Shown here: positions 5,440 to 30,499 of the stretch, piece after piece | How the letters are laid out: the number at the start of each line of letters is the position of its first letter | Position numbering within the stretch: position 1 is the first letter of the stretch | Source: Patescibacteria group bacterium | GTDB lineage: Bacteria; Patescibacteriota; Patescibacteriia; JAXHNJ01 | Direction of reading: 5' to 3' | Assembly (NCBI GenBank): GCA_041649715.1 | Contig: JBAZMP010000003.1 | Location: 100,894-164,893, forward strand | DNA length: 64,000 bases | Notes under the pieces: model-generated | What the model was told of the DNA's origin: nothing | Database searches by the model: none | The model's input: only the letters and a program-made list of their open reading frames with translations | Position numbers and translations under genes: made by a program

Positions 5440-5447
5440 AATAAAAA

Positions 5448-5787: not shown

Positions 5788-5938
5788 TGAACATCACCTC
5801 CCTTAAAGAAACAGTAAAAAAACTACACTATCTTTCTACTCAAGCAAGTGTGTAACTTATCACACATTGCACTTTTTGTCAAGTAGAAACAAAAAAGCCC
5901 TTATTTTGGAAAAGGACTTTTTTGCATTATTTTCGCTT

Positions 5939-8890: not shown

Positions 8891-9012
8891 GTTTTTATAT
8901 TTATTAATAAGACCCTGTGATATTATTTTAGCACAAATGACACTTATAATCAAGAAAGCTGCGCTTTCTAGATCTGCTTTTTTAAAAAACGGATTTTTGT
9001 TAGAATAAAATC

Positions 9013-12366: not shown

Positions 12367-12520
12367 CCTGACACAAAAGATTCGAGTCGTTGGCCGCCTA
12401 AATACGACCAAAATTTATTAATACATTATGTATAACAAAAAAAACCACTTATGTCAAAAAGAGGGAATTAAAATCACCTGACAACAAGTGCTGCCTGGAC
12501 GTGGCACCGGTAAATTGTTT

Positions 12521-12928
12521 CTAAGCGGTTGGTGACGGCTTACTGATGTCTTTCTTCTTTACGCCGACAAGCATCGAACCGACCGCCTGAGCGATAAATA
12601 ACAGATAGGCAACCCAGCTGGCCAGAAAGATGCCCTGCGTGCCGTTCACTAAGAGCATCACCACCATGAACACGGTCGTCATGCCTGACCATAACAGACC
12701 GGCGATAACCGCTTGTTTCCGGCTAACCGGTTTAAGCCACCGACCAAAGGCATAGGAAATAATAATCAAGAAACCGACGACGATGGCCATGCCCAAGGGA
12801 GGCGGGGCGGTCATTTCGGCCCCCTCTTTAACCCCGTAGATAAGAGAAATAATAAAGATGGCGATCATCAATAAGAACCATTGCAATAGGCCGAAGGCAA
12901 AAATTTTAATGATAAATATTTTGTTCAT
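12521..12928 (-). CDS. Hypothetical small membrane protein
   Basis: 135 aa with about 4 TM helices. Confidence 0.45.
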   Translation of the reverse strand: MNKIFIIKIFAFGLLQWFLLMIAIFIISLIYGVKEGAEMTAPPPLGMAIVVGFLIIISYAFGRWLKPVSRKQAVIAGLLWSGMTTVFMVVMLLVNGTQGIFLASWVAYLLFIAQAVGSMLVGVKKKDISKPSPTA

Positions 12929-12974
12929 ATATAAAGGATAGTTTTTGCTCAGGTGGCGTTGCCAACGTTTTAGT

Positions 12975-13049
12975 TGGCAGGGGCGCCTGGATTCGAACCA
13001 GGAATAATGCTTTTGGAGAGCATTGTGATAGCCATTTCACTACACCCCC
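12975..13049 (-). tRNA. tRNA-Trp (anticodon CCA), CCA encoded
   Basis: Minus-strand cloverleaf GGGGGTGTAGTG..ATGCT-CTCCAAA-AGCAT..GGTTCGAATCC..CGCCCCTGCCA. Anticodon loop CUCCAAA. Confidence 0.8.
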
Positions 13050-13354
13050 AGATAATAGATACGGATTATTTCAATTCCTTATGCCCCGTATGCTTACGGC
13101 ACCATCGGCAGTGTTTTTTTAGCTGCAGTTTTTCTTTAACGGTCTTTTTGTTCCTTTTGGAATAATAATTGACGTGTTTGCACACCGTGCATTGGAGTTT
13201 GACGAGATTGTCCTGGGACATGAATTTAAGTTGATTTAAGTTGATTAGTTTATTGAGTTAATTAAGATCATTTTTGACTTGATAAATAGTTGAAATATTT
13301 ATTTAAGCCGACTAGTAATCCTTCATATTCTCGGTCAATTTCTGCAAACGCCTT

Positions 13355-13427
13355 AGCCCACGGTCAGATTCGAACTGACGACCTACTGTTTACAAAACAG
13401 TTGCTCTACCAGCTGAGCTACGTGGGC
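13355..13427 (-). tRNA. tRNA-Thr (anticodon UGU), no encoded CCA
   Basis: GCCCACGTAGCTCAGCTGGTAGAGCAACTGTTTTGTAAACAGTAGGTCGTCAGTTCGAATCTGACCGTGGGCT. Anticodon loop UUUGUAA. Confidence 0.8.
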
Positions 13428-13536
13428 TCGGGCTAAGGCGGGCGGGTCTACCAACTGTCACCCAGAGGGTGATCCGCCTCTGGCGGAAGCTACGTCGGCC
13501 TGTCAGATTTAAGAAAAACGTAATATCCATCCCCAG

Positions 13537-13623
13537 TGGTGGGCAGGGTAGGATTCGAACCTACGAAGCCCGGAGGGCAGCAGATTTACAGTCTGCCCCA
13601 TTTGACCACTTTGGTACCTGCCC
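13537..13623 (-). tRNA. tRNA-Tyr (anticodon GUA), class II long variable arm, CCA encoded
   Basis: GGGCAGG..GCAGA-CTGTAAA-TCTGC-TGCCCTCCGGGC..GTAGGTTCGAATCCTAC-CCTGCCCACCA. Confidence 0.8.
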
Positions 13624-13668
13624 ACCACTGGGGACGAAAAATATTTATTAATTAAACAACATTGGATT

Positions 13669-13697
13669 CGCCGTGTACCAGTAAACGGTACACGGCG
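13669..13697. other. Perfect 11-bp/7-nt-loop hairpin (cgccgtgtacc-agtaaac-ggtacacggcg) between tRNA-Tyr and its partial copy
   Basis: Perfect palindrome with no adjacent U-run. A processing or stability element rather than a canonical terminator. Confidence 0.4.
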
Positions 13698-13722
13698 ACG
13701 TGATCCCTCCAGTGGTTCACGT

Positions 13723-13795
13723 CGAACCTACGAAGCCCGGAGGGCAGCAGATTTACAGTCTGCCCCATTTGACCACTTTGGTACCTGCCCACTAT
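13723..13795 (-). pseudogene. Partial duplicate of tRNA-Tyr (5' end through variable arm; T-arm and 3' acceptor strand replaced)
   Basis: 13723-13791 is identical to 13555-13623 of the intact tRNA-Tyr. The downstream part ('gtgatccctccagtggttcacgt') cannot form a T-arm or acceptor stem. Confidence 0.65.
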
Positions 13796-13889
13796 TGTTT
13801 TCAATAATTGTTTTTAAGTAACTTTTTGAATGCCTTCCCGCCTTTATTAGAATATATACATTATACATTACACATAATACATAATTGAT

Positions 13890-14170
13890 ACAGATTTATG
13901 CCGCCTTTGTCGGCACCCCGGCCGCGGGCGGTGGCAGTCTGTCCATTTACCTGTCCGCCTCGGTTGGAACCGCGGAGCCTGCCCCGAGCTAAGTCAAGGG
14001 GGTACCTGCCCCTAGATTGTCAAAAAGGATGAAGCCCAAAAGCGGATTTGTTACCCTACGGGTGATCTCCCGAAGGGAGATACCGATGATCCTTCGTTTA
14101 CCCTCAGGACAAGCTCTACTCCTTACCCCTCCTTCGCCTACGGCTTCGGAGGGCAGACATGTAGTTGTAA
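13890..14170 (-). other. G+C-rich unassigned, probably structured RNA-like element inside the tRNA cluster
   Basis: About 280 bp of locally high G+C with many short helices (gatctcccgaagggagatc, cggcttcgg, cctgccccgag/cctgcccctag) between two minus-strand tRNAs and co-oriented with them. No convincing ORF. RNase P RNA, tmRNA and SRP RNA signatures are not recognisable by eye. Confidence 0.3.
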
Positions 14171-14183
14171 TTTGTCTGCGGCC

Positions 14184-14259
14184 TGGAGCCGATGGTCGGA
14201 TTTGAACCGACGACCTACTCCTTACCATGGAGTTGCTCTACCAACTGAGCTACATCGGC
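14184..14259 (-). tRNA. tRNA-Thr (anticodon GGU), CCA encoded
   Basis: GCCGATGTAGCTCAGTTGGTAGAGCAACTCCATGGTAAGGAGTAGGTCGTCGGTTCAAATCCGACCATCGGCTCCA. Anticodon loop AUGGUAA. Confidence 0.8.
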
Positions 14260-14290
14260 ATCCCCAGGCCGCAGACAAATTTAAATTTAT

Positions 14291-15181
14291 TTACAAAGAA
14301 TCTATCTGTTTTTTTATTTCCTCGAGTTTTTTGTTCTCCGGATTGACGGCCTGCAATCGGTCAAAGGTCCTGATCGCCAAACCCTTATTTTTCATCTCCA
14401 GACAAACCTGGAGAAGATTATGCAAAATCTTGGGATTTTTAGGTTCTAGTTTTAAAGCCTCTTGGCAGCAGTGTAAAGCCTTGTCTGTCTGACCTAAAGC
14501 CTGATAAACACGGGCTAAATCCAGGTAGTAGGAGGGTTTTTTGTTATTATAAGTGATAGAAGCTAAAAGTTCTTCTTCCGCTTCTTTCAGGTTTCCCAGC
14601 GAAGAAGCGACCAGTCCAAGACCGGAAAGGGCCTGATCATCGGACGCGTTCAATTTAATAAGGAATCGGAATATCTCTTTAGCATGCTCGAAATCCTTCA
14701 TTTCGAGGTAGAGATCGCCCAAATAATGATAGGCGTCTAAATTTTTCGCGTCAAGGCTTAAGACCTCAACACATTTGCCTTCCGCTTCCTTAAAAAGTTC
14801 CCGGTCCTTCAAGGCTCCTGCTTCGCTTAAAAGACTGGAAATTTTCCGCTCTTGTTCGCTTTTTTCTTCCAGGGTGGTCGGGGTTTTGCTTCGGCGCTGA
14901 TATCTTTTTTCCAGTTCGATGATATTCTGGCGCCAATTCCGGGCCTGGTTTTCCAATTTTTTATACACAGGACGGCTATACTTGCTGACTTTTTGAAAAA
15001 GGTTCGAGGCTTTCCTTTTTAGTTTTTGTTCGATCAATTGTTCTTTGACCTGATTCTCCTTTTCTTGGGGCACTTTTTTGATGTCAATGACGCTTAAAAC
15101 GGGAAATTTTCTGATAATAATAATGATGATAACGCTTATAGCGATTAGACCGATGAGGCCGGTGATAATATCTATCAGCAT
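14291..15181 (-). CDS. TPR-repeat protein with N-terminal membrane anchor
   Basis: N-terminal TM helix, then several 34-aa TPR-like units (AYHYLGDLYLEMKDFEHAKEIF.., YYLDLARVYQALGQTDKALHCCQEAL). Confidence 0.55.
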   Translation of the reverse strand: MLIDIITGLIGLIAISVIIIIIIRKFPVLSVIDIKKVPQEKENQVKEQLIEQKLKRKASNLFQKVSKYSRPVYKKLENQARNWRQNIIELEKRYQRRSKTPTTLEEKSEQERKISSLLSEAGALKDRELFKEAEGKCVEVLSLDAKNLDAYHYLGDLYLEMKDFEHAKEIFRFLIKLNASDDQALSGLGLVASSLGNLKEAEEELLASITYNNKKPSYYLDLARVYQALGQTDKALHCCQEALKLEPKNPKILHNLLQVCLEMKNKGLAIRTFDRLQAVNPENKKLEEIKKQIDSL

Positions 15182-15190
15182 ATTAAAATA

Positions 15191-15970
15191 TTATTTTTTT
15201 TCCAATGATATTTCCGTTTCGTTTCCGTCTTCAAATCGGACCCGGTAAGATTCCTTGACGATATTCCAGGCCACCACTTTGCCTCTGCCCTTTTTGGTCT
15301 TAACCAGGCTTTCCATAGGCGGAAACTTCGCCTTTAATTCTTTATAATAAGCCTCCTCAAAGGAAAGACAGCACAAAAGCCGGCCACAGGCCCCCGATAA
15401 TCTCTCGCTGCCCCGATGAGCCACTTGCTGGTCGCGCGCGAGATCTGTAGTGACATTCCCCAGCTTTTTCATGAACTTAATGCAGCAAAGTTCGCGGCCG
15501 CAGGCCCCGAACCCGCCTTCGCGCCGGGCCTCGTCGCGCATGCCGATTTGCTGCAGCCTTATGGATTTTTGAAAATGCCGCGTCAGATCTTTGACCAAAT
15601 CCCTGAAATCCACCCGGCCGTCGGCGACGAAAGCAAAGGTCAGCCGGCCGCCGTCAAAAGAGAAATGGGTATCAATCAGTTTCATGGGCAAATTCTGCTT
15701 TTTTATCATATCGCGGCAGTAGCTTTCCGCCTCAATCTTTTTCCGGGAAAATTCCTGGGCTTGCCGGCATTCCTCCTCACTGGCCTGACGGATAATTTTC
15801 TCCGCGGTTTGGCCGGTCCCCTCATTACTTTCAAAAAAACCGGTAACCTGACCAAGCTCCTGGCCGTTTTCGATCTTCACTAAAACCCGCTCGCCGACGG
15901 CCAGCTCGAATTCGGGATAGCTTACCGTGTTTTCCGCCCAAGGATAAATTTTCAAGCGTACAAAACGCAT
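15191..15970 (-). CDS. PSP1 C-terminal domain protein (RicT/YaaT-like)
   Basis: Conserved paired GACGRELCC / GACGRLLCC motifs characteristic of PSP1/YaaT. Confidence 0.7.
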   Translation of the reverse strand: MRFVRLKIYPWAENTVSYPEFELAVGERVLVKIENGQELGQVTGFFESNEGTGQTAEKIIRQASEEECRQAQEFSRKKIEAESYCRDMIKKQNLPMKLIDTHFSFDGGRLTFAFVADGRVDFRDLVKDLTRHFQKSIRLQQIGMRDEARREGGFGACGRELCCIKFMKKLGNVTTDLARDQQVAHRGSERLSGACGRLLCCLSFEEAYYKELKAKFPPMESLVKTKKGRGKVVAWNIVKESYRVRFEDGNETEISLEKK

Positions 15971-19703: not shown

Positions 19704-19835
19704 AATTTCGCAAAAAAGAGAGGTTTGATACACAATTCAAGCCCCTTTTTAATAACTACAAAAATTAATAGTTTTATATCTAATTTTTATCAATTATTTC
19801 GAGTGAGGTTATCGCGGCCCAAAAACACTTCTGTC

Positions 19836-19864
19836 TTGACAAATTCCCAAATATGTGCTAGCAT
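19836..19864 (+). promoter_or_regulatory. Strong sigma-70-like promoter TTGACA-17-TGcTAGCAT at the upstream edge of the GC-rich island
   Basis: 'cttgacaaat' then a 17-nt spacer ending in 'tgc', then 'tagcat'. Nearly the same architecture recurs at 25522-25550. Confidence 0.5.
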
Positions 19865-20011
19865 GGGGAGTTAAAATCAAAAATAAAACCTTTTCATTTT
19901 CAACCCCCAAATACGAAAAGGAGTGTAAATTTGGGGAAAAAGTCGTGTTGTTTGACAACCGAATACACTGTTTATCTTATCCCGACACCTCAAGAAAGGA
20001 GTAGGGAGAAT

Positions 20012-20302
20012 GTGAAGACGAAAACACGGGATGCGCCGATCAAAGTCCGGGTCGGGGCCGTGGAACAAAAGGGCGAGCACGGGGTGCCGTTCCTGGTTAC
20101 CTGGCCAACGAGCCCGACTTTGAAAGATTTAGGCAGTATCACGATCGAGCAGACAGCCGAGACCCTGCTAGGTGAACCCCCCTGTACGGGTGGCGAATAC
20201 CTAGTGGCTTTTGGTGTCTACCAGAAGGAAAAGGGTTGGCGTGCTCAAAAAGCCCGCCGATTCCGTCCGGATGATTTCAGAAATCCTGACATCATCCAGT
20301 AA
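20012..20302 (+). CDS. Hypothetical small protein (first gene of GC-rich island)
   Basis: GTG start preceded by 'aaggag' about 10 nt upstream. About 96 aa (VKTKTRDAPIKVRVGAVEQKGEHGVPFLVTW..). G+C-rich. Confidence 0.45.
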   Translation: MKTKTRDAPIKVRVGAVEQKGEHGVPFLVTWPTSPTLKDLGSITIEQTAETLLGEPPCTGGEYLVAFGVYQKEKGWRAQKARRFRPDDFRNPDIIQ

Positions 20303-20356
20303 AAGCATCGAGCATGTAGAACATGAGCATGTAGCACTCAGAAAGGATCGGCTACA

Positions 20357-21067
20357 ATGGCCAAGAAATCAATAAGGGGTTTGTTTGTCAAGACTGACGG
20401 ACAAGCTCCCAGACCCGGGTCCCCTTCCGGAAGTGCTTGGGCTCCGCCGGCTGGAACAGGTTTTGTCCCCGGCTCAGCTCCCAAGTCATATCTGGATACC
20501 GGCCCCCGGCGCGGTCAATCAAGCGGGAACGCGACCGCGGTAACTTCTACCGCCGTCGACACGCAGTTTACGGCCGAGATCGAGGAACAGCTCCGGACCG
20601 TGCCGACTCCCAAGGGTTTCGACATGTTCCTGGGCGCCCTCGAAAACTTGACCCAGTTCATCCCCGACGAAGGAAACCGCTTCAAGGCGGCGATGGTAAC
20701 GGCGGCCGCCAGCGGGCTGACGCCGGCACAAATCGTCGAGGCCCTGGAAGCGCAGCTGGCAGCCCTGGAAAAAATCCTGGCGACCTTCCAGAGCGATCTG
20801 GAAACGGAAGCCAACGAGTCGATCGCCGAACGCGAGTCGCAGCTAAAAACGCTGGCGACCCAGATCGGCGACCTCCAGCGGCAGCTGGCCGACATACAGA
20901 GAGAAATGCAGAAACTCTCTGACGATCAGAGAAGACTACAGGATGAAAACGCCCAGGTCGAGCAGCGTAAAAGCTTGGTAACCAACCGTTACTCAAGCGC
21001 GCACGCGGCCAAACTGGGCAAAACCCAAGAGCTGCTTTCAAAGGTACAGCGGTACCTCGGGCAGTAG
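20357..21067 (+). CDS. Hypothetical protein: Pro/Gly/Ser-rich disordered N-terminus plus helical/coiled-coil C-terminal half
   Basis: 236 aa. RBS 'aggatcgg' upstream. The C-terminal half has heptad-like text (LEAQLAALEKILATFQSDLE..LQRQLADIQREMQKLSDDQRRLQDENAQVEQ). Confidence 0.55.
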   Translation: MAKKSIRGLFVKTDGQAPRPGSPSGSAWAPPAGTGFVPGSAPKSYLDTGPRRGQSSGNATAVTSTAVDTQFTAEIEEQLRTVPTPKGFDMFLGALENLTQFIPDEGNRFKAAMVTAAASGLTPAQIVEALEAQLAALEKILATFQSDLETEANESIAERESQLKTLATQIGDLQRQLADIQREMQKLSDDQRRLQDENAQVEQRKSLVTNRYSSAHAAKLGKTQELLSKVQRYLGQ

Positions 21068-21081
21068 GAAAGAGGAACGAA

Positions 21082-22185
21082 ATGGTAGAGACACCCTCTT
21101 TGCCGCAGCTCAAGGGCTTCGGCAATGACATGCTTTCAAGCAAGGAGAAGACAATCGGAGCGATTGTCACTATCCTGCTGATTGGCGCCGCGCTGCTCGG
21201 GCTTAATGCCCTTCTTCCCGGCATCAATCATTTTCTCTCGGGTCTGCTGGCCGCGGTCGGCAAGCTCGTGATGCTTGCCATCTCCCTGGCCGGCCTAGCC
21301 TTGTTCCTGGCCGTCGCCATGAACAAGCGGACCCACACGCTTCTCAAGCTGGGGTTCTACTGGCTGGCGCGCAAGACCACGATGGCCTTCGTCAGGTACG
21401 GCCCGACCACCATCATTGAGATCTACAACGATCACCTGACCGCAAAAGCTCAGAAGTTCGGCGAGAAAAAGATGGTCGTGGATTCCAAGCGGGAGGTCGT
21501 GGCGCGCACCATTGAAGAGAACCAGGCTTCGATCAACGAGAGCCAGGCGAACGCCAAAACTCTCAAATCCCGGCACTTCGACGACAAACAGAGAAGGTGG
21601 GATTCGATCGAACACAAGAATCTCTTCATGGAGTACAGCTCGAACATCAGCTTCCGCGAGGCCTCCAACGTGAATCTGCGCAAGCAGCTTATCAGGCTGG
21701 AATACTATCTCCAGATCCTGGAGAAGTTCCAGCAGGCGTTCAATCACCGCCGTAACGTGATCAAGAACTTCTGCAAGATCCTAAACACGGAGTACGAAGC
21801 CATGAAGGCGGCCGCGGAGGGAACTCACGAACTCTCGGCGCTCTTCGGCACCGACGACCTAAAGCAGGTCTTCGACATGACCATCGACTTCATGAGAGAG
21901 CGGATCGCTTTCTTCACGAGCGAGGTCGACACCTTTATGAGCGAGAACCTGCCGGTCGTCACCGAGCTCGACCTGCAGAACGAAGTGGCGGAAGACCAGC
22001 TTCTCGCCAGACTGACGGACATGGACAAGAAAGCCGATCACCTGATCGACCAGGCCGCCCAAGATGAGGTGGCCCTGACCGATATCCGGGGATTGGCAAC
22101 GTTGGTCAAGTCCAACCAGGCAACCGCGGCCACCCAAACGACGCCCTCTTCAACAAGAAGGCATCGCTACCTGGGCGGAAACTAA
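21082..22185 (+). CDS. Hypothetical membrane protein (2-3 N-terminal TM helices, long cytoplasmic helical domain)
   Basis: 367 aa. TM segments IGAIVTILLIGAALLGL / LSGLLAAVGKLVMLAISLAGLALFLAV. The remainder is predicted helical. Starts 15 bp after the previous stop, so it is probably co-transcribed. Confidence 0.55.
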   Translation: MVETPSLPQLKGFGNDMLSSKEKTIGAIVTILLIGAALLGLNALLPGINHFLSGLLAAVGKLVMLAISLAGLALFLAVAMNKRTHTLLKLGFYWLARKTTMAFVRYGPTTIIEIYNDHLTAKAQKFGEKKMVVDSKREVVARTIEENQASINESQANAKTLKSRHFDDKQRRWDSIEHKNLFMEYSSNISFREASNVNLRKQLIRLEYYLQILEKFQQAFNHRRNVIKNFCKILNTEYEAMKAAAEGTHELSALFGTDDLKQVFDMTIDFMRERIAFFTSEVDTFMSENLPVVTELDLQNEVAEDQLLARLTDMDKKADHLIDQAAQDEVALTDIRGLATLVKSNQATAATQTTPSSTRRHRYLGGN

Positions 22186-22238
22186 TAAGTCTCTCATTTT
22201 CCCAATTCTCAACCAGAAAAGTCAGTAAAGGAGTAGTC

Positions 22239-23717
22239 ATGAAAAACCTTACTCTTCTCTCGAAGGTCCTGATCGGAGTCGTGATCCTCGCAATCGTCGG
22301 TTCCCTCCTGTGGTTCAGCGGCATCCTCAACAAGGAGCGGCCGCTGCGGGTCAGCGTGGTCACCTGGGGTGGCTATGCCGGGGGACAGCTTTGGAACGAA
22401 GGTTTCAAAGCCAGCGAGGAAAGCCGCTTCCTTAAGGAATACGGCGTTCCCGTCGAGTTCGTCCTGAACGATGATATCGAAAGCAGCTTGAAGGCTTGGG
22501 AAGCCGGCGAAGTTGACGCTCACTGGTGGACCGCCGACGTATTTTCGACGGTCGCTGATGAGCTAGCCGCTTACAATCCCAAGGTCTTCATGCAGGCTGA
22601 CTGGTCCAGAGGCGGCGACGCCATCGTGGTCGTTCGCGGCATCAATTCCGTGAACGATCTGCGAGGCCGGAAAATCGCCGTCGCTTTCAAGACCCCCAGT
22701 CACAGCTTTCTGCTTTGGGCCCTTGAATCCGCGGGCATGACCCCGAACGACGTCCAGATCGTGGAAGTCGCTTCCGCCATCGACGCGGCGGCGGCATTCA
22801 AAGCTGGACAAGTCGATGCGGCTGTTGTTTGGGCACCGGATGATCAAGGCTGTGTCGATGCGGTACCCGGCTCAACAATCTTGGCCAACACCAAGGATGC
22901 CAAGTACATCATCAGCGACGTCTTCTTCGCGAAAGAAGAAGTCCTCGTCGCCCGCCATGACGATTTTGTTTCCCTGGCGGAAGGCTGGCTCAAAGGCAGC
23001 GCGTTGATCAACACCGATCCGACGGCCAAGAACAGAGCGGCTGAAATCCTCTCAACTGGATTGAGCGTATCGGTAGATTACGCTCTCGGAGCCATCAACA
23101 ATGTTCGCCTCACCACTCTGGGAGACAACATCAACTTCTTCAACATCAATGGCAACTACCAGGGCGTCAAGGGCGAAGACATTTATACCAAGACGGGAAG
23201 AATGTACCAAAAGTACGGCATCATCAAGGGAAGCTTTCCGGATTGGCGCTCTGTCGTCGATCTTTCAATCGTGAAGGAAGTCATCGAAAGAGGCAAGCTG
23301 ACGGGCAATATGAACGCGGCTGAAGCGGCCACGACCTTCGAGCGGCCGACCGAAAAGATGGCCTCCGCCCCGGCCATGGCGACCAAACGCGTGACGATCA
23401 ACTTCGCCACCAACGTTTACGCCTTGGACGAAAACGCCATGCGCATCCTTGACCTGCAAGCGGCTGACGCTCTGCGGTTCATGGGCGGCGTACGCGTCCG
23501 TATCACTGGCAACACCGATAATGTCGGCGATTACCAGATGAACATGAACCTGTCCCAGAAGCGGGCCGAAGCGGTCGCCGATTACCTGGCGAGAACCTAC
23601 AAGTTCGACCGCAACCGGTTCGTCATCGTGGGCAAGGGTCCGGACAATCCGGTCGCCTCAAATGAGACGCCGGACGGCCGGGCAAAGAACCGTCGCACGG
23701 ATATCGAACTCTTCTAG
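22239..23717 (+). CDS. Membrane-anchored NMT1/SsuA-type ABC substrate-binding protein fused to a C-terminal OmpA-like domain
   Basis: N-terminal anchor (LLSKVLIGVVILAIVGSLLWF). Central domain resembles nitrate/sulfonate/taurine-type binding proteins. The C-terminus carries an OmpA-C-like segment (NTDNVGDYQMNMNLSQKRAEAVADYL..GKGPDNPVASNETPDGRAKNRRTDIELF). Confidence 0.6.
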   Translation: MKNLTLLSKVLIGVVILAIVGSLLWFSGILNKERPLRVSVVTWGGYAGGQLWNEGFKASEESRFLKEYGVPVEFVLNDDIESSLKAWEAGEVDAHWWTADVFSTVADELAAYNPKVFMQADWSRGGDAIVVVRGINSVNDLRGRKIAVAFKTPSHSFLLWALESAGMTPNDVQIVEVASAIDAAAAFKAGQVDAAVVWAPDDQGCVDAVPGSTILANTKDAKYIISDVFFAKEEVLVARHDDFVSLAEGWLKGSALINTDPTAKNRAAEILSTGLSVSVDYALGAINNVRLTTLGDNINFFNINGNYQGVKGEDIYTKTGRMYQKYGIIKGSFPDWRSVVDLSIVKEVIERGKLTGNMNAAEAATTFERPTEKMASAPAMATKRVTINFATNVYALDENAMRILDLQAADALRFMGGVRVRITGNTDNVGDYQMNMNLSQKRAEAVADYLARTYKFDRNRFVIVGKGPDNPVASNETPDGRAKNRRTDIELF

Positions 23718-23814
23718 GGCCACGGCCTGAAAGATAGTTTGGTATCATACCGCCAAAGGGGCGGGAGTCAACTGATTCCCGCCCCTCTCATCAACCTCCT
23801 GGGAAGGAGAACGA

Positions 23815-24612
23815 ATGCATAACAATGGAGACCTGTTTTGCCTCCGAGGCAAACTGCCGCCGAAAACTCGAATGGTAATCGAGCTCGCCGGCCTGGTCAT
23901 CATTCTCCTTGTCTGGTGGGCGGTCGTCGCGACTGGTCTGGTCAAGCCGAAAATGCTGCCTTCACCGATTTCCGTCGTTACCTGCTTCGGTGAACTGGTG
24001 AAGCAAAATCACTTGGTCGGAAACCTGCTCTTCTCGTTGATGCTCAACATCCTGGGGTATATTGAGGCCATCCTGATCGCTGTACCGCTTGGTTTTCTGA
24101 TCGGCCTCCAGCCTATCCCGCGAGCCCTGAGTGAAAGATACATCACCGCCGGACGGTTCCTGCCGCTTTCGGCCGTGGTCGGTCTGTTCATTATGTGGTT
24201 CGGGATGTACACCAACATGAAAGTGCAGTTTCTGAGCTTAGGCATCGTTGTCTATCTCCTGCCGATGGTCATCCAGAGAGTCGACGAGGTCGATCAGATC
24301 TATTTCGACACCGTCAAGACTCTGGGCGCCAGCAAATGGCAGGCCGTGACGAGCGTTTTTATCCCGGGTGCGCTCTCCAAGATCTCTGACGACATCCGGG
24401 TCATCGTCGCCATAAGTTGGACCTATATCATCATCGCTGAGGTGGTGAACAGGACCCAAGGCGGCATCGGAGCGCTGTGTTACGGCGTCAGTCGCGCTAG
24501 CCGTCCGGACAAAGTATTCGCCATTTTGGCTATAATCATCCTGATCGGGATCGTCCAGGACAAATTCTTTCTTTTCCTGGACAAGAAACTCCTCAAGCAC
24601 AAGTACGTCTGA
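23815..24612 (+). CDS. ABC transporter permease (NitT/TauT family, SsuC/TauC-like)
   Basis: Six TM helices. Region resembling the EAA loop (..LGASKWQAVTSVFIPGALSKISDDIRV..). RBS 'ggaaggag' upstream. Confidence 0.7.
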   Translation: MHNNGDLFCLRGKLPPKTRMVIELAGLVIILLVWWAVVATGLVKPKMLPSPISVVTCFGELVKQNHLVGNLLFSLMLNILGYIEAILIAVPLGFLIGLQPIPRALSERYITAGRFLPLSAVVGLFIMWFGMYTNMKVQFLSLGIVVYLLPMVIQRVDEVDQIYFDTVKTLGASKWQAVTSVFIPGALSKISDDIRVIVAISWTYIIIAEVVNRTQGGIGALCYGVSRASRPDKVFAILAIIILIGIVQDKFFLFLDKKLLKHKYV

Positions 24613-24630
24613 ACAAAGGAGGTTTGAAAG

Positions 24631-25446
24631 ATGCCGACGCTACTCCCAGTCGTCTTCGAAAATACAAACCTCCCGGACGTCATCGAGCTGCGCAACATTT
24701 GCCAGACGTACGACGGAGGAAAGGCTTGGGTCTTACAGTATGTCAACCTCCTGATCGAGGACATCCCCGACCAGGGACAGTTCGTGGTCATACTCGGACC
24801 CTCAGGCTGCGGCAAATCAACGCTTCTGAAATATATTGCCGGCCTGCAAAAACCGACCAGTGGGGAAGTGCTGATCAGCGGAAAGGTCCGTACCGATGAC
24901 GTCGTCGTCGGCATGGTCTTCCAGCAGTACTCCTCCCTGCCCTGGTTCACGGTACTTGAGAACGTCATGCTGGGGCTAAGGTTTCAGAACGTGCCGGAGA
25001 AGGAAGCCCGGGAAAAAGCGATGCAAATGCTCGAAGTCGTCGGACTGGCCTGCGAGGCGAACAAATTCGCCAAAAGCACCCAGCTTTCCGGCGGCCAGAT
25101 GCAGCGCGTCGCCATCGCCCGCAGCTTGATCTCCAACCCCGGCATTATCCTGATGGACGAGCCGTTCGGCGCCCTGGACATCAACACCAGGCACCAGATG
25201 CAGCTCCTCCTCTGCGATATCTGGGAAAAGCTGCAGTCAACCATCATCTTCGTCACCCATGATATCAACGAAGCCGTGTTCCTGGCTGACGATATCTATG
25301 TGATGACGAAGAACCCCGGTTACATCTGCAAGCACTGGATAATTGACCTGCCCAAGCATCGTGACCGGTCAACCAAGCGTGACCCGCGGTTCATCGAACT
25401 CGCCAACGAGATCGATGATTACATGCAGAACTTACGCATCAAATAG
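24631..25446 (+). CDS. ABC transporter ATP-binding protein (NitT/TauT family)
   Basis: Walker A GPSGCGKST, signature LSGGQMQRVAIARSL, Walker B ILMDEPFGALD, H-loop VTHD. Confidence 0.85.
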   Translation: MPTLLPVVFENTNLPDVIELRNICQTYDGGKAWVLQYVNLLIEDIPDQGQFVVILGPSGCGKSTLLKYIAGLQKPTSGEVLISGKVRTDDVVVGMVFQQYSSLPWFTVLENVMLGLRFQNVPEKEAREKAMQMLEVVGLACEANKFAKSTQLSGGQMQRVAIARSLISNPGIILMDEPFGALDINTRHQMQLLLCDIWEKLQSTIIFVTHDINEAVFLADDIYVMTKNPGYICKHWIIDLPKHRDRSTKRDPRFIELANEIDDYMQNLRIK

Positions 25447-25468
25447 CTCATTTTTCATTCGCACATAA

Positions 25469-25500
25469 GGCTGACCCCTCAAAAGGTCAGCCTTTTTCTT
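25469..25500 (+). terminator. Rho-independent terminator after the ABC ATPase gene
   Basis: Stem ggctgacc/ggtcagcc followed by 'tttttctttt'. Confidence 0.6.
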
Positions 25501-25521
25501 TTGCCCAAATTCCTAAAATCC

Positions 25522-25550
25522 TTGACAAATAAATAATTTCGTGCTAATAT
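25522..25550 (+). promoter_or_regulatory. Strong sigma-70-like promoter TTGACA-17-TGcTAATAT for the AAA+ ATPase gene
   Basis: 'cttgacaaat'..'gtgctaatatg'. Same architecture as 19836-19864 and 33648-33676. Confidence 0.5.
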
Positions 25551-25623
25551 GTTGGGTTAATTTGCACCTTGTAATTTTGATATTTTTCACAGAGGCATTG
25601 AAAAAAAGAAAGGCAGGCACAGA

Positions 25624-27480
25624 GTGAAAGATGGTATAAAAAAGCAGCCGTTATCGCACGGAGAAGACGATTTTGAAAGCAGCGGTATTCCCGGTCTCGA
25701 CGACGCGGTCAAATCACTGGATAACATTCCCAAAATCCTGGGCCGCAGACGAGAAATGACGCGGAAAACGGAAGGTCATCTTCGCAAAGAAATGGCCGAA
25801 ACCGGCGAAACAGAGGAAAATCCTCTTCAGCCGGCCCTGGTTCGCGCCATGATCACCGCGGGCAAGCTCGCCCGTCATCTCGAGTCACAGCGGGAAAAAC
25901 CCGGCTATTACGGCGTGGTTTTTTCCCGACTGGCAGCAATGACCGATCCGGAAAAGTTCGATTACGGCAAGATTCAGCCGGGCACCAAGGTCAAAATCCT
26001 CACCAACGAAAACCAGCCGGAATTAATGGGGCAAGTGGGCTACACAGCCAACGAACCCGATTCGGACGGTCTTGTCATGGTGCTTTTCGATGAAGGCGAA
26101 TTCGGCCATTTCCTGGCTGTGCCGCCGGACGAAAAGCAACCGAGGGAGATCGAAATTGTCCCCGGCCAAGACCGAGTCATCGTCCTTTTCGAAGGACGCT
26201 TCATCGAGCTGGCTTCTCCGGAAGGAATGACCCTTTCCAGCGGCCAGGTGGTCAAGCTGGATCTGAAAACCAACCAGATCCTGGATATCGTCAGCCTAGA
26301 ACTGCCGGGCGAGATCGCCACGGTAAAATGTATCTTGGGCGGCCGCGTCCAAATCGACTTCCACGGTACCGATAAAATCGTGGCGGCCGGCGACCTGACC
26401 AAGACCTTAGAGCCCGGCAATCAGGTGATCTTAGACTCAACCAACCAGCTGATCACTGGCAACCTCGGCGACATGGATGTTTCCTACCGCTACAACCGCC
26501 CGCCGGCCATCACCTGGGATGATATCGGCGGACAGACCGCAGCCAAAGCCATACTCCAAGAGATGATTGAGGCGCGCTTCGATCATCCGGCCGCTTTTGA
26601 AAGGTTTCACAAGAAACCCCCCAAGGGCCTGCTTCTGCTCGGCCCCACCGGCTGCGGCAAGACGATGTTGGCCGAAGCCATGGCCTATTCGCTTTCGAAG
26701 CGCTTCGGTGAAACCGCCATGCGTTCCGGCTTTTTCCTGGTCAAGGGACCGGAGATTCTGCGCTCGCTCGTCGGCGAACAGGAAGCTATCATGCGCCACA
26801 TCTTCGTCCTGGCAGACAAGCACTTCGCCAAATTCGGCTTCCCCGCCATCATCTTCATCGATGAATGCGAAGGCATCTTGAAAAAGCGGGGCACGGGCAC
26901 CAGCGGCGACTACTTCGAAACGCTGGTGCAAACCTTCTTGGCCCTGATGAACGACACCAAGGCCATCGTCGTACTGGCGACAAATAGGCCGGATATGCTC
27001 GACCCGGCGGTGGTCCGCCACAAGCGCATCGACCGCAAGATTCCGGTTCGTCGTCCGGATCGGCCGGCCTCCGAGGAAATCTTCAGAATCTATCTGAAAG
27101 ATCTCCCTCTCTCCGAGGGCTTGACCGGCGAGACACTGGCCAAACTGGTGACAACCGAGCTTTTCTCGGACTGCTACGGCATGTACAAACTCATTGTCCA
27201 GACCGAAAACGGAACAGAAGAGAAAATCTTTGGCCTAGCGCAGGTCATCAACGGCGCCATGATCGCCGGGATAGTAGATGAGGCCACCTCGGCCGCCGTC
27301 AACCGGCAGATCAAAGACGGTAAGGAAACCAGTCTGACCGCAGATGACCTAAAAGAAGCCCTGAGCAGAGTCTATCAGGGCGAACTCCTGACCGATCACA
27401 CCGAAGACCAGAAAGAATTCGGGGAAAACCTGACCGGCAAGGTCCTGGAAGCCCACAAGCTCTTTGTGGGCCGCAAATAG
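25624..27480 (+). CDS. ARC/Mpa-family (proteasome-associated-ATPase-like) AAA+ unfoldase; no C-terminal GQYL-type proteasome-docking tail
   Basis: Predicted GTG start. N-terminal short helix, then a beta-rich inter-domain region, then an AAA module: ITWDDIGG, Walker A LLLGPTGCGKT, Walker B IIFIDECEG. ARC/Mpa-like stretches (FFLVKGPEILRSLVGEQE.., KKRGTGTSGDYFETLVQTFL, ATNRPDMLDPAVVRHKRIDRKIPVRRPD) are matched against the ARC/Mpa family from memory. The protein ends ..LFVGRK. Confidence 0.75.
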   Translation: MKDGIKKQPLSHGEDDFESSGIPGLDDAVKSLDNIPKILGRRREMTRKTEGHLRKEMAETGETEENPLQPALVRAMITAGKLARHLESQREKPGYYGVVFSRLAAMTDPEKFDYGKIQPGTKVKILTNENQPELMGQVGYTANEPDSDGLVMVLFDEGEFGHFLAVPPDEKQPREIEIVPGQDRVIVLFEGRFIELASPEGMTLSSGQVVKLDLKTNQILDIVSLELPGEIATVKCILGGRVQIDFHGTDKIVAAGDLTKTLEPGNQVILDSTNQLITGNLGDMDVSYRYNRPPAITWDDIGGQTAAKAILQEMIEARFDHPAAFERFHKKPPKGLLLLGPTGCGKTMLAEAMAYSLSKRFGETAMRSGFFLVKGPEILRSLVGEQEAIMRHIFVLADKHFAKFGFPAIIFIDECEGILKKRGTGTSGDYFETLVQTFLALMNDTKAIVVLATNRPDMLDPAVVRHKRIDRKIPVRRPDRPASEEIFRIYLKDLPLSEGLTGETLAKLVTTELFSDCYGMYKLIVQTENGTEEKIFGLAQVINGAMIAGIVDEATSAAVNRQIKDGKETSLTADDLKEALSRVYQGELLTDHTEDQKEFGENLTGKVLEAHKLFVGRK

Positions 27481-27503: not shown

Positions 27504-27537
27504 ACACTCCGGGAGAAATCTCGGAGTGTTTTTTTAT
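27504..27537 (+). terminator. Rho-independent terminator after the AAA+ ATPase gene (downstream boundary of the GC-rich island)
   Basis: acactccg-(10 nt)-cggagtgt followed by 'ttttttt'. Confidence 0.6.
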
Positions 27538-27550
27538 ATTGCAATATTTT

Positions 27551-28249
27551 TTAATATGTTGGCGCTATGGGTAAAACATAGTCATCTTCATGTATCAGAT
27601 GCATGTTTTCAGTAATATAGGAATAATCAGAATCTTCATATTTTACATCAATTAAAAATCGACATAAATAATATCCAAATAAAACCTCGTCATTGCCCAT
27701 TGACTCGCAGTTGGCAATCTTAACTCCTTTTCTATCGTAATAATTAATACCGCCATCAAGGCAACCGATATAGGGAAACATACTAAATGGAGCATCGCAT
27801 ATTTCCGCATATATCCGGCCGTATCTTTTAGTATTCCAGGAAACGATTGGCCAATTGTCATAGTGCTCTCTATTAATGATGTTATTAATAACTGTCATAT
27901 CTACCCTGTCATTTTCGGGATTCTTTAAGGGTTTTTGGGTGAAAAGAAAAGGCGTGCCATATAATATTAAAATCGAAATAATTATAAGTATAAGGGCTGA
28001 TAAAACATTCTTTCTATTAATTAGTGAGATAAGACAGGCAAAAATATATAATGCGATTGCATAGATGCTATAAAATAAAAATAATATGTCAACGGTAATG
28101 CTAGATTCAAGATATTGAAATAGCGAAACGTATATATTTACCTCAAAAAAATCAAAAAAGAATAAATACTCAATAACGGTGACAACGATTAATCCCAAAA
28201 GGATTAATATCTTCTTTTTGGTCGGTTTTAAGTGTTTTAAAAATCGCAT
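27551..28249 (-). CDS. Hypothetical membrane protein in a very AT-rich segment
   Basis: 232 aa. Three N-terminal TM helices and a Cys-containing extracytoplasmic domain. The segment is noticeably more A+T-rich than its neighbours. Confidence 0.45.
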   Translation of the reverse strand: MRFLKHLKPTKKKILILLGLIVVTVIEYLFFFDFFEVNIYVSLFQYLESSITVDILFLFYSIYAIALYIFACLISLINRKNVLSALILIIISILILYGTPFLFTQKPLKNPENDRVDMTVINNIINREHYDNWPIVSWNTKRYGRIYAEICDAPFSMFPYIGCLDGGINYYDRKGVKIANCESMGNDEVLFGYYLCRFLIDVKYEDSDYSYITENMHLIHEDDYVLPIAPTY

Positions 28250-28268: not shown

Positions 28269-29399
28269 CTACCACTCCCATTCGCGTCCTTCCGGTATGA
28301 CCTCAACCCAGGTCTGACCGCGGTTGAACTCTATTTCCTGTCCGCTAGAATCATAAAAAATAGTGCGGTCGGTCCGCTCCGGTTTTTTCCAGGTGCCTTC
28401 GACCGCAAGGCCATCCCGCAAGACAAAAGCCTTACCCTCACCATGAGTACTTAAACCAAGCCTGCCCTTTTCGCCCAGATACTCCTCCGGCGGGACAATT
28501 TGAACGATAATATTCTTAGCCTTCAATTCCTGCTTATTATTGGCATCCACTTGCACTTGATCCGCGTTATATCTTAAATATAAATTTTCCTCTTTGATGT
28601 ATTTCCACTCCACTTCGTAGGTATAAGAGGAAAATTTAACTTTATAAAACTTTTGGTCTTCGCCCCTATCAGCCAGAACCGCATCGTCTTTAAAAAGCCA
28701 CATCCTCGTGGTTGATTGCTTTTCTAAAAGTCCCTTGTCGCGCAAGGCATAAACGAGCTTCTCCCCGGAAGTGAAAAGATTGTGCGGGGCAAAGAGGGTG
28801 TGGTCCCGCCAAAAATAGACCGCGTCCCTGGATAGGGCATTTAAATCATTGGTGTCATAATCGCGGATATTGCCTAAGGCGGCCGGCGAACCGCCGGCGT
28901 GAGCGTACAAAGCGGCGTATTCATAAGCCCAGTCCAAATAATAGGGGCGGGCCGATCTTACCGGACCAATAACGGGGGCGGTTGAACCGCCGGTAAATAA
29001 AACCAGGAAACGAGTCGCGCCGCCTTCCGCTAAAGTTTCGTAAATAATCGATGCCTGGCTAAGGCCGGCTTGCGGCCGCACGGACAGCAGATTCTCAATC
29101 ATCACTCCGACCGGCCATAGATTGGCGGCCGCCGCGTCCTTTACTTTCTGGCCGTCAAACCGACGGTAATATTCCTCCGGCTTAAGGACAACAGTCATCG
29201 GAGGGGTATCGTTTTTAACCTTGTCATGCGCCAAAACCGGCAAGATATCGAAACCATTTAAAAATATTGAAAGGCTGAAGAACACCCCGGCAAAAACAAA
29301 CAAACCGACCACTATGAAAAGACGAGCCTTCAAATCAAAAAGAGGGCTGACTTTTTTCTTTGTTAAAATCTTATTGTTCTTTTTGTTTTTGTTTTTCAT
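28269..29399 (-). CDS. DUF3048 domain protein (YerB-like), membrane-anchored
   Basis: N-terminal TM, then ..ENLLSVRPQAGLSQASIIYETLAEGGATRFLVLF.. typical of DUF3048. Paralogous to the next gene. Confidence 0.65.
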   Translation of the reverse strand: MKNKNKKNNKILTKKKVSPLFDLKARLFIVVGLFVFAGVFFSLSIFLNGFDILPVLAHDKVKNDTPPMTVVLKPEEYYRRFDGQKVKDAAAANLWPVGVMIENLLSVRPQAGLSQASIIYETLAEGGATRFLVLFTGGSTAPVIGPVRSARPYYLDWAYEYAALYAHAGGSPAALGNIRDYDTNDLNALSRDAVYFWRDHTLFAPHNLFTSGEKLVYALRDKGLLEKQSTTRMWLFKDDAVLADRGEDQKFYKVKFSSYTYEVEWKYIKEENLYLRYNADQVQVDANNKQELKAKNIIVQIVPPEEYLGEKGRLGLSTHGEGKAFVLRDGLAVEGTWKKPERTDRTIFYDSSGQEIEFNRGQTWVEVIPEGREWEW

Positions 29400-29416
29400 T
29401 TTTTTGTAACGTGAAA

Positions 29417-30499
29417 CTAGTTATAAGTAACGGTCCGGTCATCCGGCACCACTTGAATCCAAGTCTGTCCCGCGTTGAATTCTATCTCTTTGCCCGTCTC
29501 GTCGTAGAACAGGGTCCTTTGGTTCCGACCTTCCTTTTTCCAGGTGGCGGCTGTCGCCTTCCCGTCCTGAAAAATGACCGCCTGCCCTTCGCCGATCGTT
29601 ACCATAGAAAGCCGGCCTTCCTCGATGACCGAGGTCTTGACATACTGAACCACGACATTTTTGGCGGCCATCTGTTCGTTTTTTTGATTGACGAACGGCT
29701 CGCCGCCCTGCGCCCTCAAATAGACGTTTTTCTCCCGGTCATATGTATATTCCACCTTATAGGAGAAACTGGAATAATCGATAGCGATGTTCCTTTGTTC
29801 GGTCGGCCGACTGCCCAGGGCCGCCTCTTCCTTAAATTGGTAGCCCTCATAGTTACCTTCCGCGGGCGCTTTTTTATCCCGTAGAGCAAAGATCAAAAGA
29901 TCGCTGGAAGTGAAAACATTGTGGGGCGCCGCAATTTTTTTGTCTCGCCAGAAATAACGGCTGTCATAGAACTGGTCTAGATTAAACACGTCGTAAGTTG
30001 AAATCAAAGACATAGCCAGGGGGCTGCCGCCGACATGACCATAAAGAGCGTTATATTCCTTCACCCAGTCTAAAAAGTACGGCCGGGCCGAGCGGACGGG
30101 ACCGATTTTGGCTATCGATGAAGTTAAATTATAAACGGCCATAAAACGGGTAATCCCCCCTTCGGCTAAAGCCTCGTAGACCAGATTCGCGTTCTCCAAA
30201 CCCGCTTGGGGCCTGACCGTCACCAAATTTTCAATCATTACGGCCACGGGGTATAATTGGCGGTTTTCCCTCACATCATAAACTCCGTCAATCACCCGCC
30301 TGACCTGGTCTTCTTTATTGTTGACAATTGAGCCGTTAGAATTGTCTTTTCCCTGGCGGCCGAAAATAAAATACCCGAGCAGACTGACGGCTACGAGCAA
30401 AGCACCGGTAATACTAATAAGCAGCCATTTCTTGCTTTTTTTGACCGTCGCCAGATATTTTTCTTTTTCTCCTTCAATTTTTATCTTTGTCTCACCCAT
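29417..30499 (-). CDS. DUF3048 domain protein (paralogue), membrane-anchored
   Basis: ..ENLVTVRPQAGLENANLVYEALAEGGITRFMAVY... Start set at MGETKIK. The K/R-rich upstream extension in the ORF track is the rplY 3' end read in another frame. Confidence 0.6.
   Translation of the reverse strand: MGETKIKIEGEKEKYLATVKKSKKWLLISITGALLVAVSLLGYFIFGRQGKDNSNGSIVNNKEDQVRRVIDGVYDVRENRQLYPVAVMIENLVTVRPQAGLENANLVYEALAEGGITRFMAVYNLTSSIAKIGPVRSARPYFLDWVKEYNALYGHVGGSPLAMSLISTYDVFNLDQFYDSRYFWRDKKIAAPHNVFTSSDLLIFALRDKKAPAEGNYEGYQFKEEAALGSRPTEQRNIAIDYSSFSYKVEYTYDREKNVYLRAQGGEPFVNQKNEQMAAKNVVVQYVKTSVIEEGRLSMVTIGEGQAVIFQDGKATAATWKKEGRNQRTLFYDETGKEIEFNAGQTWIQVVPDDRTVTYN

Follow-up and report, generated by a model that had tools for sequence, protein, structure and literature searches.

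What do two adjacent hypothetical genes encode that lie among housekeeping genes of a Patescibacteria genome, one predicted to be soluble and the other membrane-anchored? The two genes, here called A (WC528_05120) and B (WC528_05125), lie in a stretch of 64,000 nucleotides (the window: positions 100,894 to 164,893, forward strand, of contig JBAZMP010000003.1, assembly GCA_041649715.1), which belongs to a 235,657-bp contig of a metagenome-assembled genome (MAG) of the Patescibacteria, or candidate phyla radiation (CPR). The original prediction, made from the DNA letters, described a pair of unknown family, a soluble coiled-coil protein plus a membrane protein. Both open reading frames (ORFs) are present on the plus strand where it placed them, with a spacing of 14 nt rather than 15 bp. 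Our analysis indicates that B probably belongs, as a remote and membrane-anchored member, to the PspA branch within the ESCRT-III superfamily, and that A is its constant partner, a helical family of no assigned kinship. The description as a pair proved too narrow, as the two genes lead a syntenic five-gene cassette that includes an ATP-binding cassette (ABC) importer. The features that carry the argument are as follows.

20357-21067, plus strand: gene A, helical partner protein of 236 aa, ATG start (MFA5070630.1)
21082-22185, plus strand: gene B, probable membrane-anchored PspA/Vipp1-like protein of 367 aa, ATG start (MFA5070631.1)
21139-21321, plus strand: hydrophobic helical hairpin of B (aa 20-80), the membrane anchor predicted by the AlphaFold2 model
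21397-21933, plus strand: segment of B (aa 106-284) aligned by hhalign to PspA 23-184 (helices alpha1-alpha5), starting at P108, which matches the PspA 'EDP'

Profile searches revealed that B represents a large family. At E<=1e-3, an exhaustive HMMER search with the B profile recovered 541 cluster representatives, of which 214 reached E<=1e-10; almost every one is full-length (320-380 aa). Word-indexed searches returned four relatives (three at 61-72% identity and one, from a Campbellbacteria genome, at 29%), and only seven proteins with a 138-sequence B profile. Homologues of A and B with 58-72% identity are present on other Patescibacteria contigs. Neither protein matched any family of Pfam, NCBIfam, PADLOC or PHROG beyond coiled-coil noise. 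Most B members share the N-terminal motif K-S/A-F-W-x-R-P-E-G, and the family conserves a hydrophobic hairpin with Pro in the turn, followed by a basic helix and several C-terminal blocks. P108 is nearly invariant and usually stands within '[I/V]-D-P-I-G-I-[M/L]-K-x-Y-I-x-x-L'. In the AlphaFold2 model of B, built from the 138-sequence alignment (mean predicted local distance difference test score 80.8), residues 20-80 form the hydrophobic helical hairpin, and the remainder is predicted as helices at residues 82-106, 108-165, 176-252, 260-295, 301-333, and 335-351. A hairpin followed by about 270 aa of helix agrees with the two to three transmembrane helices and about 260 aa of helix that had been expected. 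Because basic residues flank the hairpin on both sides (K22-K23 before it and a K/R-rich stretch at 83-100 after it), both termini of B would face the cytoplasm (N-in/C-in). The tip of the long hairpin of the helical part is charged (RHFDDKQRRWDS).

PspA, Vipp1, and the ESCRT-III proteins are universal polymers of membrane repair and remodelling. The original prediction had loosely compared the pair with PspA/ESCRT-III-like or TelA/XpaC-like membrane-stress systems. The first comparison is borne out for B by hhalign, by the leading though sub-threshold Pfam family and by the fold search, and is not supported for A, which reached only 2-22% against PspA by hhalign, near the controls. The second found no support: TelA (PF05816) and XpaC (PF10112) matched neither A nor B and were not among the 25 families commonest in the 138 B members. 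Comparison of the 138-sequence B alignment with a PspA/Vipp1 alignment of 10 sequences only (E. coli MG1655 PspA, Synechocystis Vipp1 from the PDB, and eight diverse PspA homologues from IMG/VR) gave an hhalign probability of 93.3% (E 2.7e-7, score 54) over 162 columns, pairing B 108-279 with PspA 23-184; controls with the alignment reversed on either side reached 10-11% with a score of about 28. With a second, independent B alignment of 130 sequences the probability was 81.9% (E 1.1e-5) and the register unchanged; the control for this alignment reached 16%. An alignment on the PspA side was needed, since the B profile reached only 10% against the single E. coli PspA sequence. The register is anchored at P108, whose motif resembles 'EDP-x-K-[M/L]-L-x-Q-x-I-x-[D/E]-M', with which helix alpha1 of PspA begins.

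The Pfam and structural searches led to the same family. Among the 138 B members, PspA_IM30 was matched by 23 at E<0.1 (best 4.2e-5) and the next family by 10, and PspA_IM30 was also the top Pfam match of the majority consensus of the family (E 9.8e-5, 22.5 bits, model positions 23-206 of 220). In a Foldseek search of the B model against the PDB, ranks 1-6 were all Vipp1 (probability 1.00, target TM-score 0.54-0.63), with further Vipp1 entries, Synechocystis PspA and CHMP1B at lower ranks. The predicted fold of B comprises a long alpha1-alpha2/3 hairpin followed by alpha4 and alpha5, as in ESCRT-III. The basic helix at residues 82-106 directly precedes the position equivalent to 'DP' and did not align with PspA alpha0 in the hhalign comparison; in the model, B is predicted to attach to the membrane through its transmembrane hairpin in place of alpha0. 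No recognisable MIM motif was found in B, and a tblastn search of plasmids with PspA returned almost only enterobacterial copies. None of the tests for PspA kinship is decisive singly, but they agree in both family and register.

Analysis of A indicated three parts: a basic-hydrophobic-acidic N-terminal motif (aa 1-13), a linker rich in P, G, S, A, and T (aa 14-70, 39 of 57 residues or 68%), and a helical domain that ends in a coiled coil (aa 71-236). This agrees with the low-complexity N-terminus of about 60 aa and the heptad-like helices noted from the DNA; the remaining 165 aa or so of A match generic coiled coils only. The homologues of A, collected by iterated searches over the fetched loci, share this architecture: the N-terminal motif has the consensus M-S-L-F-K-K-L-K-S-L-F-V-E-E-D, the linker of about 40 aa is rich in Pro and Ala, the helical domain contains the conserved block 'I-P-D-E-x-x-R-x-K-A-A', and the C-terminus is a coiled coil. 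Pfam scans of the A consensus and of eight members gave coiled-coil noise only, and searches of the PDB sequences with A and with a five-sequence B profile gave nothing significant. The hhalign comparison of A with B (26-31%, controls 3-4%) is not convincing. Two candidates from the search of the PDB with the A profile, apolipophorin-III (E 4.6e-5) and the Q/S-rich coiled coil 8qox_B, were rejected because their alignments are heavily composition-biased. For neither A nor B was an unrelated, well-characterised family found.

It was also observed that both partners start with a short 'K-S-[L/F]-[F/W]' motif, which reads LKSLFVEED in A (20357-20395) and KPKSFWSRPEG in B of the phage type (for example at 8001-8070 of locus L009; loci are cited here by their numbers in our collection). 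Very short as it is, this motif could be a docking peptide common to A and B.

Genes A and B belong to seven plus-strand genes in one run (S-A-B-C-D-E-F, 20012-27480), whose other members are listed below.

20012-20302, plus strand: gene S, small ORF of 96 aa from GTG, a Patescibacteria-type accessory gene preceding A
22239-23717, plus strand: gene C, N-terminally anchored solute-binding protein resembling NMT1, SsuA, and OpuAC, fused to a C-terminal OmpA-type peptidoglycan-binding domain
23815-24612, plus strand: gene D, permease of an ABC importer (BPD_transp_1)
24631-25446, plus strand: gene E, ABC ATPase with intact motifs
25624-27480, plus strand: gene F, classical-clade AAA+ ATPase of 618 aa (MFA5070635.1)

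The gene content of C-D-E, judged from sequence, is that of a type I binding-protein-dependent ABC importer: in Pfam, C matched NMT1, NMT1_2, and Phosphonate-bd together with OmpA, D matched BPD_transp_1 at 2e-13, and E matched ABC_tran at 3.6e-30, with Walker A (GPSGCGKS), signature (LSGGQ), Walker B (ILMDEP), and H-loop intact. To follow the order of the cassette, loci with enough flanking sequence were counted, separately for a viral/CPR set and a genome set. A stands directly upstream of B in 66 of 67 Patescibacteria and viral loci, with a median gap of 12 nt; a protein of the C type (500-650 aa with a C-terminal OmpA domain) comes after B in 56 of 60, and D and E follow in 52 of 56. In the genome set the counts fall from 58 of 74 for A before B, through 42 of 68 for C, to 26 of 50 for D and E, which indicates that A-B is the core and the importer a frequent addition. 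A and B are real conserved genes and not chance ORFs, and the pair recurs in other genomes.

Searches of viral sequences revealed the cassette in many huge phages. IMG/VR yielded 60 distinct viral loci, on contigs of up to 512 kb (19 longer than 200 kb and 35 longer than 100 kb), with flanks typical of huge phages: T4-type RNA ligase, ThyA, PARP, DNA ligase, RlaP, and runs of small ORFs on the same strand. Among GenBank phages, the B family is present in all 15 records of the Lak megaphages, which inhabit the human and animal gut (here Prevotella phages of 540-551 kb). RsoM2USA, a jumbo phage of Ralstonia in culture, also has a member. The unannotated genome of Lak-A1 (MK250016.1; L161 7052-13418, about 358.8-365.2 kb) encodes the full A-B-C-D-E, and the ORFs read through equally with genetic codes 11 and 15. 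RsoM2USA has A-B only (L069 6353-7918), as gp55-gp54, annotated 'hypothetical'.

In bacteria, a scan of the GTDB species representatives, which used motifs of the phage type only, confirmed at least 558 B relatives; a search of the same representatives with the Patescibacteria-type alignment gave no match. Among the 80 loci fetched are those of cultured Burkholderiales (Massilia glaciei, Scleromatobacter humisilvae, Albitalea terrae, Collimonas, and two Undibacterium), of numerous MAGs from Saprospiraceae and Lewinellaceae, and of members of Calditrichia, Geobacter, Fibrobacteria, Paceibacterota, and Peribacteria. With hundreds of bacterial genomes and many huge phages as carriers, the earlier naming of A and B as the prime unknowns of the island undersold their spread. 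Mis-binned phage may account for some of the cassette-bearing MAG contigs. Ordinary chromosome surrounds the cassette in isolates and in Patescibacteria: the cassette of Undibacterium sp. TS12 neighbours genes for a methyl-accepting chemotaxis protein, a POT transporter, RtcB, a cyclophilin, and a thiolase, and in another Patescibacteria genome it adjoins GroEL, pyruvate kinase, and pyruvate phosphate dikinase. On a 524-kb Lewinellaceae MAG contig with neighbours of chromosomal type, A-B stands alone, without the ABC importer (L154 8389-9990, Bacteroidota), between DUF2130 and a CDP-alcohol phosphatidyltransferase on one side and two universal stress proteins (Usp), an esterase, a patatin-like phospholipase, and a TIR protein on the other. 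A full S-A-B-C-D-E of the bacterial or Patescibacteria type was also seen on a 96-kb contig binned as Nanoarchaeota (JAUSIT010000016.1, L155), which may reflect mis-binning or cross-domain transfer.

The seven genes of the window have chromosomal surroundings: prfA and prmC lie immediately upstream, and other parts of the window encode FtsW/RodA, DnaE, YfhO, a DEAD-box helicase, and two DUF3048 proteins. The GC content is 0.555 in the island against 0.455 in the rest of the window, and that of third codon positions is 0.61-0.80 in island genes against 0.31-0.61 in flanking genes. The compositional island noticed at the outset is therefore real, as is the AAA+ ATPase that had been reported with it; the seven genes form a codon-usage island that was probably acquired horizontally. 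No tRNA, integrase, or convincing att repeat was found at the island edges. The only repeat flanking the island, an imperfect AT-rich direct repeat of 18 nt (16 of 18 positions matching), brackets it at 19881-19898 and 27677-27694, perhaps as an insertion scar or by chance. Scans for consensus signals gave the following candidates, whose function is deduced from the match to the consensus.

19836-19864, plus strand: promoter-like site TTGACA-17-TAGCAT, TG-extended, upstream of S-A-B-C-D-E
25467-25494, plus strand: terminator-like hairpin after E, with a 10-bp stem and a T-run
25522-25550, plus strand: second promoter-like site, TTGACA-17-TAATAT, before F
27504-27529, plus strand: terminator-like hairpin after F that would close the island, with an 11-bp stem and T7

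A 40-nt box containing the -35/-10-like hexamers is duplicated, at 19835-19874 before S-A-B-C-D-E and at 25521-25560 before F, with 70% identity, and this shared box suggests that F is co-regulated with the other six genes. Homologues of S directly upstream of A occur only in Patescibacteria-type loci (L001, L002/L003, L106, and L155), and L001, the closest relative of the window locus, has a second copy of S at 11178-11456. S looks beta-rich, had no family match in scans of curated libraries, and its ribosome-binding-site region resembles that of C in a repeat comparison. Tandem DUF3048 paralogues adjoin the cassette both in the window (28269-30598, minus strand, downstream) and in L001 (249-2478, upstream), which suggests a neighbourhood partly shared between the two genomes. 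Elsewhere the window contains a cluster of four tRNA genes at 12975-14259 on the minus strand (Trp-CCA, Thr-TGT, Tyr-GTA, and Thr-GGT) and, at 5939-8953 on the minus strand, a locally GC-rich (0.55) gene for an NHL/FG-GAP repeat protein of 1003 aa, probably a surface protein.

In the ATPase F, a single AAA module (aa ~296-510) follows about 290 aa of N-terminal sequence; Walker A (GPTGCGKT) and Walker B (IFIDECE) are intact. It scored 241 bits over aa 296-506 against the AAA modules of p97, Cdc48, and VAT, and its longest PDB alignment was to Mycobacterium Mpa (aa 182-568 to Mpa 19-435), reaching the OB region of the Mpa/ARC type. Its scores lie below the cut-offs of TIGR03689 (240 bits, cut-off 505) and CdvC (78 bits, cut-off 650). 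Homologues of F stand next to the cassette in several independent lineages (L001, L035/36, L046, and L053/54); in L043, L058, and L062/63 they are no more than a few kb away. By analogy, this adjacency and the clade of F, rather than any MIT/MIM match, suggest a Vps4-like role.

Comparison of the bacterial loci revealed stress-related neighbours. A KdpD-family histidine kinase with an OmpR-type regulator adjoins the cassette in ten bacterial loci, divergently upstream or directly downstream (L119 at 5001-8100, L102, L108, L110, L096, L082, L094, L090, L095, and L086); these kinases have DUF4118, with or without KdpD-N or GAF, followed by HisKA and HATPase, and no kdpABC is in view near them. 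Such two-component systems are often beside the cassette in Burkholderiales isolates and may be dedicated regulators of it; in Bacteroidota, Usp genes are among the neighbours. In L001, an NfeD-like gene (YqiJ_N) and a gene for a 685-aa Band_7 (flotillin-like) protein lie about 2 kb downstream of F (12412-15251); they are absent from this place in the window. Both kinds of protein are known to accompany PspA systems. For Band_7 proteins this association is a classic one (Ravi et al., mSystems 2024, PMC11237479).

The explanation that we favour, with moderate confidence, is that B together with A constitutes a membrane-stabilising or membrane-remodelling module coupled to solute import. From the gene content, alignments, and model we infer polymerisation of B, contact between A and B, the role of F, the coupling to transport, and the physiological role, in a scheme that would run as follows. 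A, B, and the peptidoglycan-tethered importer C-D-E would be made from one transcript. The two-helix hairpin would anchor B in the cytoplasmic membrane so that its N- and C-terminus both lie inside the cell, and the basic helix at aa 82-106 would sit where PspA has its membrane-binding alpha0. Residues ~106-350 would supply the alpha1-alpha2/3 hairpin and alpha4/alpha5, the parts that PspA and Vipp1 use for polymerising on membranes, and A would serve as a cytoplasmic co-polymer, adaptor, or regulator of B. Around or next to the transporter, the two may coat the membrane's inner face with an assembly that protects or remodels the membrane and, when the envelope is stressed or osmotic conditions are adverse, maintains it in a sealed, energised state, while C-D-E would import a small solute and the OmpA domain of C would pin the complex to peptidoglycan. 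Where F is present, it might disassemble or recycle the polymer as Vps4 does ESCRT-III. Bacteria would put the cassette under stress control, through KdpD-type systems in Burkholderiales and with Usp neighbours in Bacteroidota, and in huge phages the cassette may preserve the envelope of the host, or give it another shape, over a long infection.

Several observations weigh against this explanation. The B-family consensus remains below the gathering score of PspA_IM30 (PF04012, 33.9 bits) and the B of the window alone has no Pfam match, so that B falls outside PF04012 as Pfam's threshold defines that family. A profile search of the PDB placed Vipp1 in register at E 0.07-0.26 only, among generic coiled coils, and the Foldseek search gave no match at E<=1e-3. 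The polymer and repair role ascribed to the family comes from sequence and a predicted model. No profile search placed A. A hydrophobic-moment test gave no support for an amphipathic membrane helix at its N-terminus, as 35% of shuffles were equally good; naively called ORF starts added noise to that test. Residues 1-299 of F have no Pfam match and no detectable MIT domain, unlike Vps4, and because most cassettes are without F, the ATPase is an optional accessory rather than an essential part. We have no explanation for the coupling of a solute importer to a PspA-like protein, and no substrate is assigned to the importer. The GC of the cassette is also 3-15 points higher than that of its flanks in several low-GC carriers that are unrelated to one another, among them phages (L002, L158, L155, L054, and L005); since the excess recurs in this way, the GC of the island is not by itself proof of recent transfer.

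Three other explanations were considered. A and B might be accessory or regulatory subunits of C-D-E, acting as a gate, scaffold, or localisation device, with the PspA-like hairpin a mere stalk and solute uptake the actual function; this would suit the strict A-B-C-D-E synteny of most loci, the ABC parts that all look catalytically intact, the likeness of the solute-binding domain to NMT1, SsuA, OpuAC, and phosphonate binders, and the nearby KdpD-type sensors, which could report osmotic or ionic need. We regard it as unlikely, given that A-B occurs without C-D-E in RsoM2USA and in many Bacteroidota loci, which argues that the pair has a function of its own, that D and E accompany it in only about half of the genome loci counted, and that we know of no type I ABC importer that needs partners like A and B. 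The likeness of B to PspA could instead be convergent, A and B being a generic coiled-coil pair of cytoskeletal, division, or tethering function in the manner of EzrA or DivIVA. Coiled coils do dominate the hmmsearch results against the PDB sequences, and EzrA, ATG, and other coiled-coil families are among the weak Pfam matches. Convergence is nevertheless weakened by a profile match that keeps register from the Pro/'DP' motif over about 160 columns and scores about 26 units above the reversed controls; as that match was reproduced with a second alignment, PspA_IM30 was counted more than twice as often as the next Pfam family, and all six best Foldseek matches are Vipp1, we consider it quite improbable.

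A phage weapon or defence, which might exclude superinfection, time lysis, or act as a pair of pore-forming alpha-helical toxins, with the bacterial copies as prophage cargo, would account for the abundance of the cassette on viral contigs, Lak megaphages included, and for weak matches of A to the Bacillus HBL and MakB toxin families. These matches are, however, sub-threshold and fall on the low-complexity coiled coil of A, and the charged tip of the long hairpin of B differs from the hydrophobic tip of alpha-pore-forming toxins. Moreover, PADLOC gave no match for A or B beyond coiled-coil noise, and in isolates and Patescibacteria the cassette stands among housekeeping rather than prophage genes, which makes a weapon highly improbable. 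A membrane-stabilising or remodelling module coupled to solute import thus remains our preferred explanation.

The consequences reach beyond this locus. The family is large, spans hundreds of species-level genomes without a Pfam or NCBIfam model, and would combine a PspA-like domain with a membrane anchor of its own. Its carriage by phages suggests that giant phages actively manage the integrity or shape of the host membrane, and the occasional adjacent AAA+ ATPase bears on how bacterial polymers of the PspA type are disassembled. A wider view, which we advance tentatively and hold to be possible rather than probable, is that A-B forms the heart of a mobile machine for membrane remodelling that descends from ESCRT-III and is exchanged between bacteria, including Patescibacteria, and huge phages such as the Lak megaphages and RsoM2USA. 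In infection, phages would deploy B as an anchored PspA-like polymer, together with A, the wall-tethered importer, and at times a Vps4-like AAA+ ATPase, and this polymer would stabilise the host membrane or change its shape. If true, it would provide a virus-encoded system of the ESCRT-III type and a bacterial pairing of ESCRT-III with AAA+ of a kind that a 2025 review, in noting Vps4-type regulators, called apparently absent from bacteria (PMC7619361). Cultured carriers (Undibacterium, Massilia, Collimonas, Albitalea, Scleromatobacter, and phage RsoM2USA) give an experimental entry.

A cassette of this kind, an anchored PspA-like protein with a constant partner and usually an ABC importer, was noted in passing in 2024. 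In a short passage and a table row, Ravi, Anantharaman, Chen, Brenner, Datta, Aravind, and Gennaro described an operon of PspA, a periplasmic binding protein fused to OmpA behind a signal peptide (SIG+PBPB+OmpA), a permease, an ABC ATPase, a membrane-anchored divergent Snf7 (SIG+TM+Snf7), and a double AAA+ ATPase, for example at OGG56892.1 of Candidatus Handelsmanbacteria, and suggested a tie between membrane remodelling and solute transport (PMC11237479). Compared by description, its parts list matches the present one: a transmembrane-anchored ESCRT-III-like protein, a binding protein with OmpA, a permease plus an ABC ATPase, and an AAA+ ATPase of the classical clade. The gene order differs, being A-B-solute-binding/OmpA-permease-ATPase-AAA+ here; their operon begins with PspA, whereas A is not recognisably PspA; their AAA+ protein is a tandem of an inactive and an active module, whereas F has a single module behind a non-AAA N-terminal region; and their anchored member is Snf7, whereas B is nearer to PspA than to Snf7 by Pfam. 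That paper mentions no phages, and in the searchable subset of the literature, which is no proof of novelty, three papers on jumbo or huge phages (PMC7824862, PMC7162821, and PMC12880540) do not mention the cassette; its representation in giant phages, including the Lak megaphages, is apparently unreported.

Comparison with the ESCRT-III and Vps4 systems (CdvB/CdvC of archaea and Snf7/Vps4 of eukaryotes) shows a common arrangement, a probable ESCRT-III-superfamily gene beside a classical-clade AAA+ gene, here and in about ten other loci. The differences are that F is without a detectable MIT domain, has its longest PDB alignment to Mpa/ARC and is missing from most cassettes, and that B is without a recognisable MIM. 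With PspA and Vipp1, the soluble domain of B has in common the in-register alignment over alpha1-alpha5, the long alpha1-alpha2/3 hairpin, and the best fold matches, and the gene company is similar, with the Band_7/NfeD pair of L001, stress regulators, and sometimes an AAA+ ATPase. To our knowledge, all well-studied bacterial members of the PspA, Vipp1, and ESCRT-III families are peripheral proteins, whereas B is predicted to be integral, with a two-helix N-terminal anchor and a conserved N-terminal motif. B is also about 140 aa longer than PspA and Vipp1, and, unlike PspA, it is paired with A and usually with an ABC importer and has no partners of the PspB, PspC, PspF, or LiaI type. In the Lia and Psp systems, a small membrane anchor and a PspA effector are controlled by envelope stress. 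The logic of LiaI-LiaH in Bacillus and of PspB/C-PspA, a PspA-type protein held by a small transmembrane anchor under such control, is like that proposed for B; here the partner A shows no kinship with LiaI or PspB/C, LiaF/S/R and PspF are absent, and the predicted anchor and the PspA-like domain are joined in one polypeptide.

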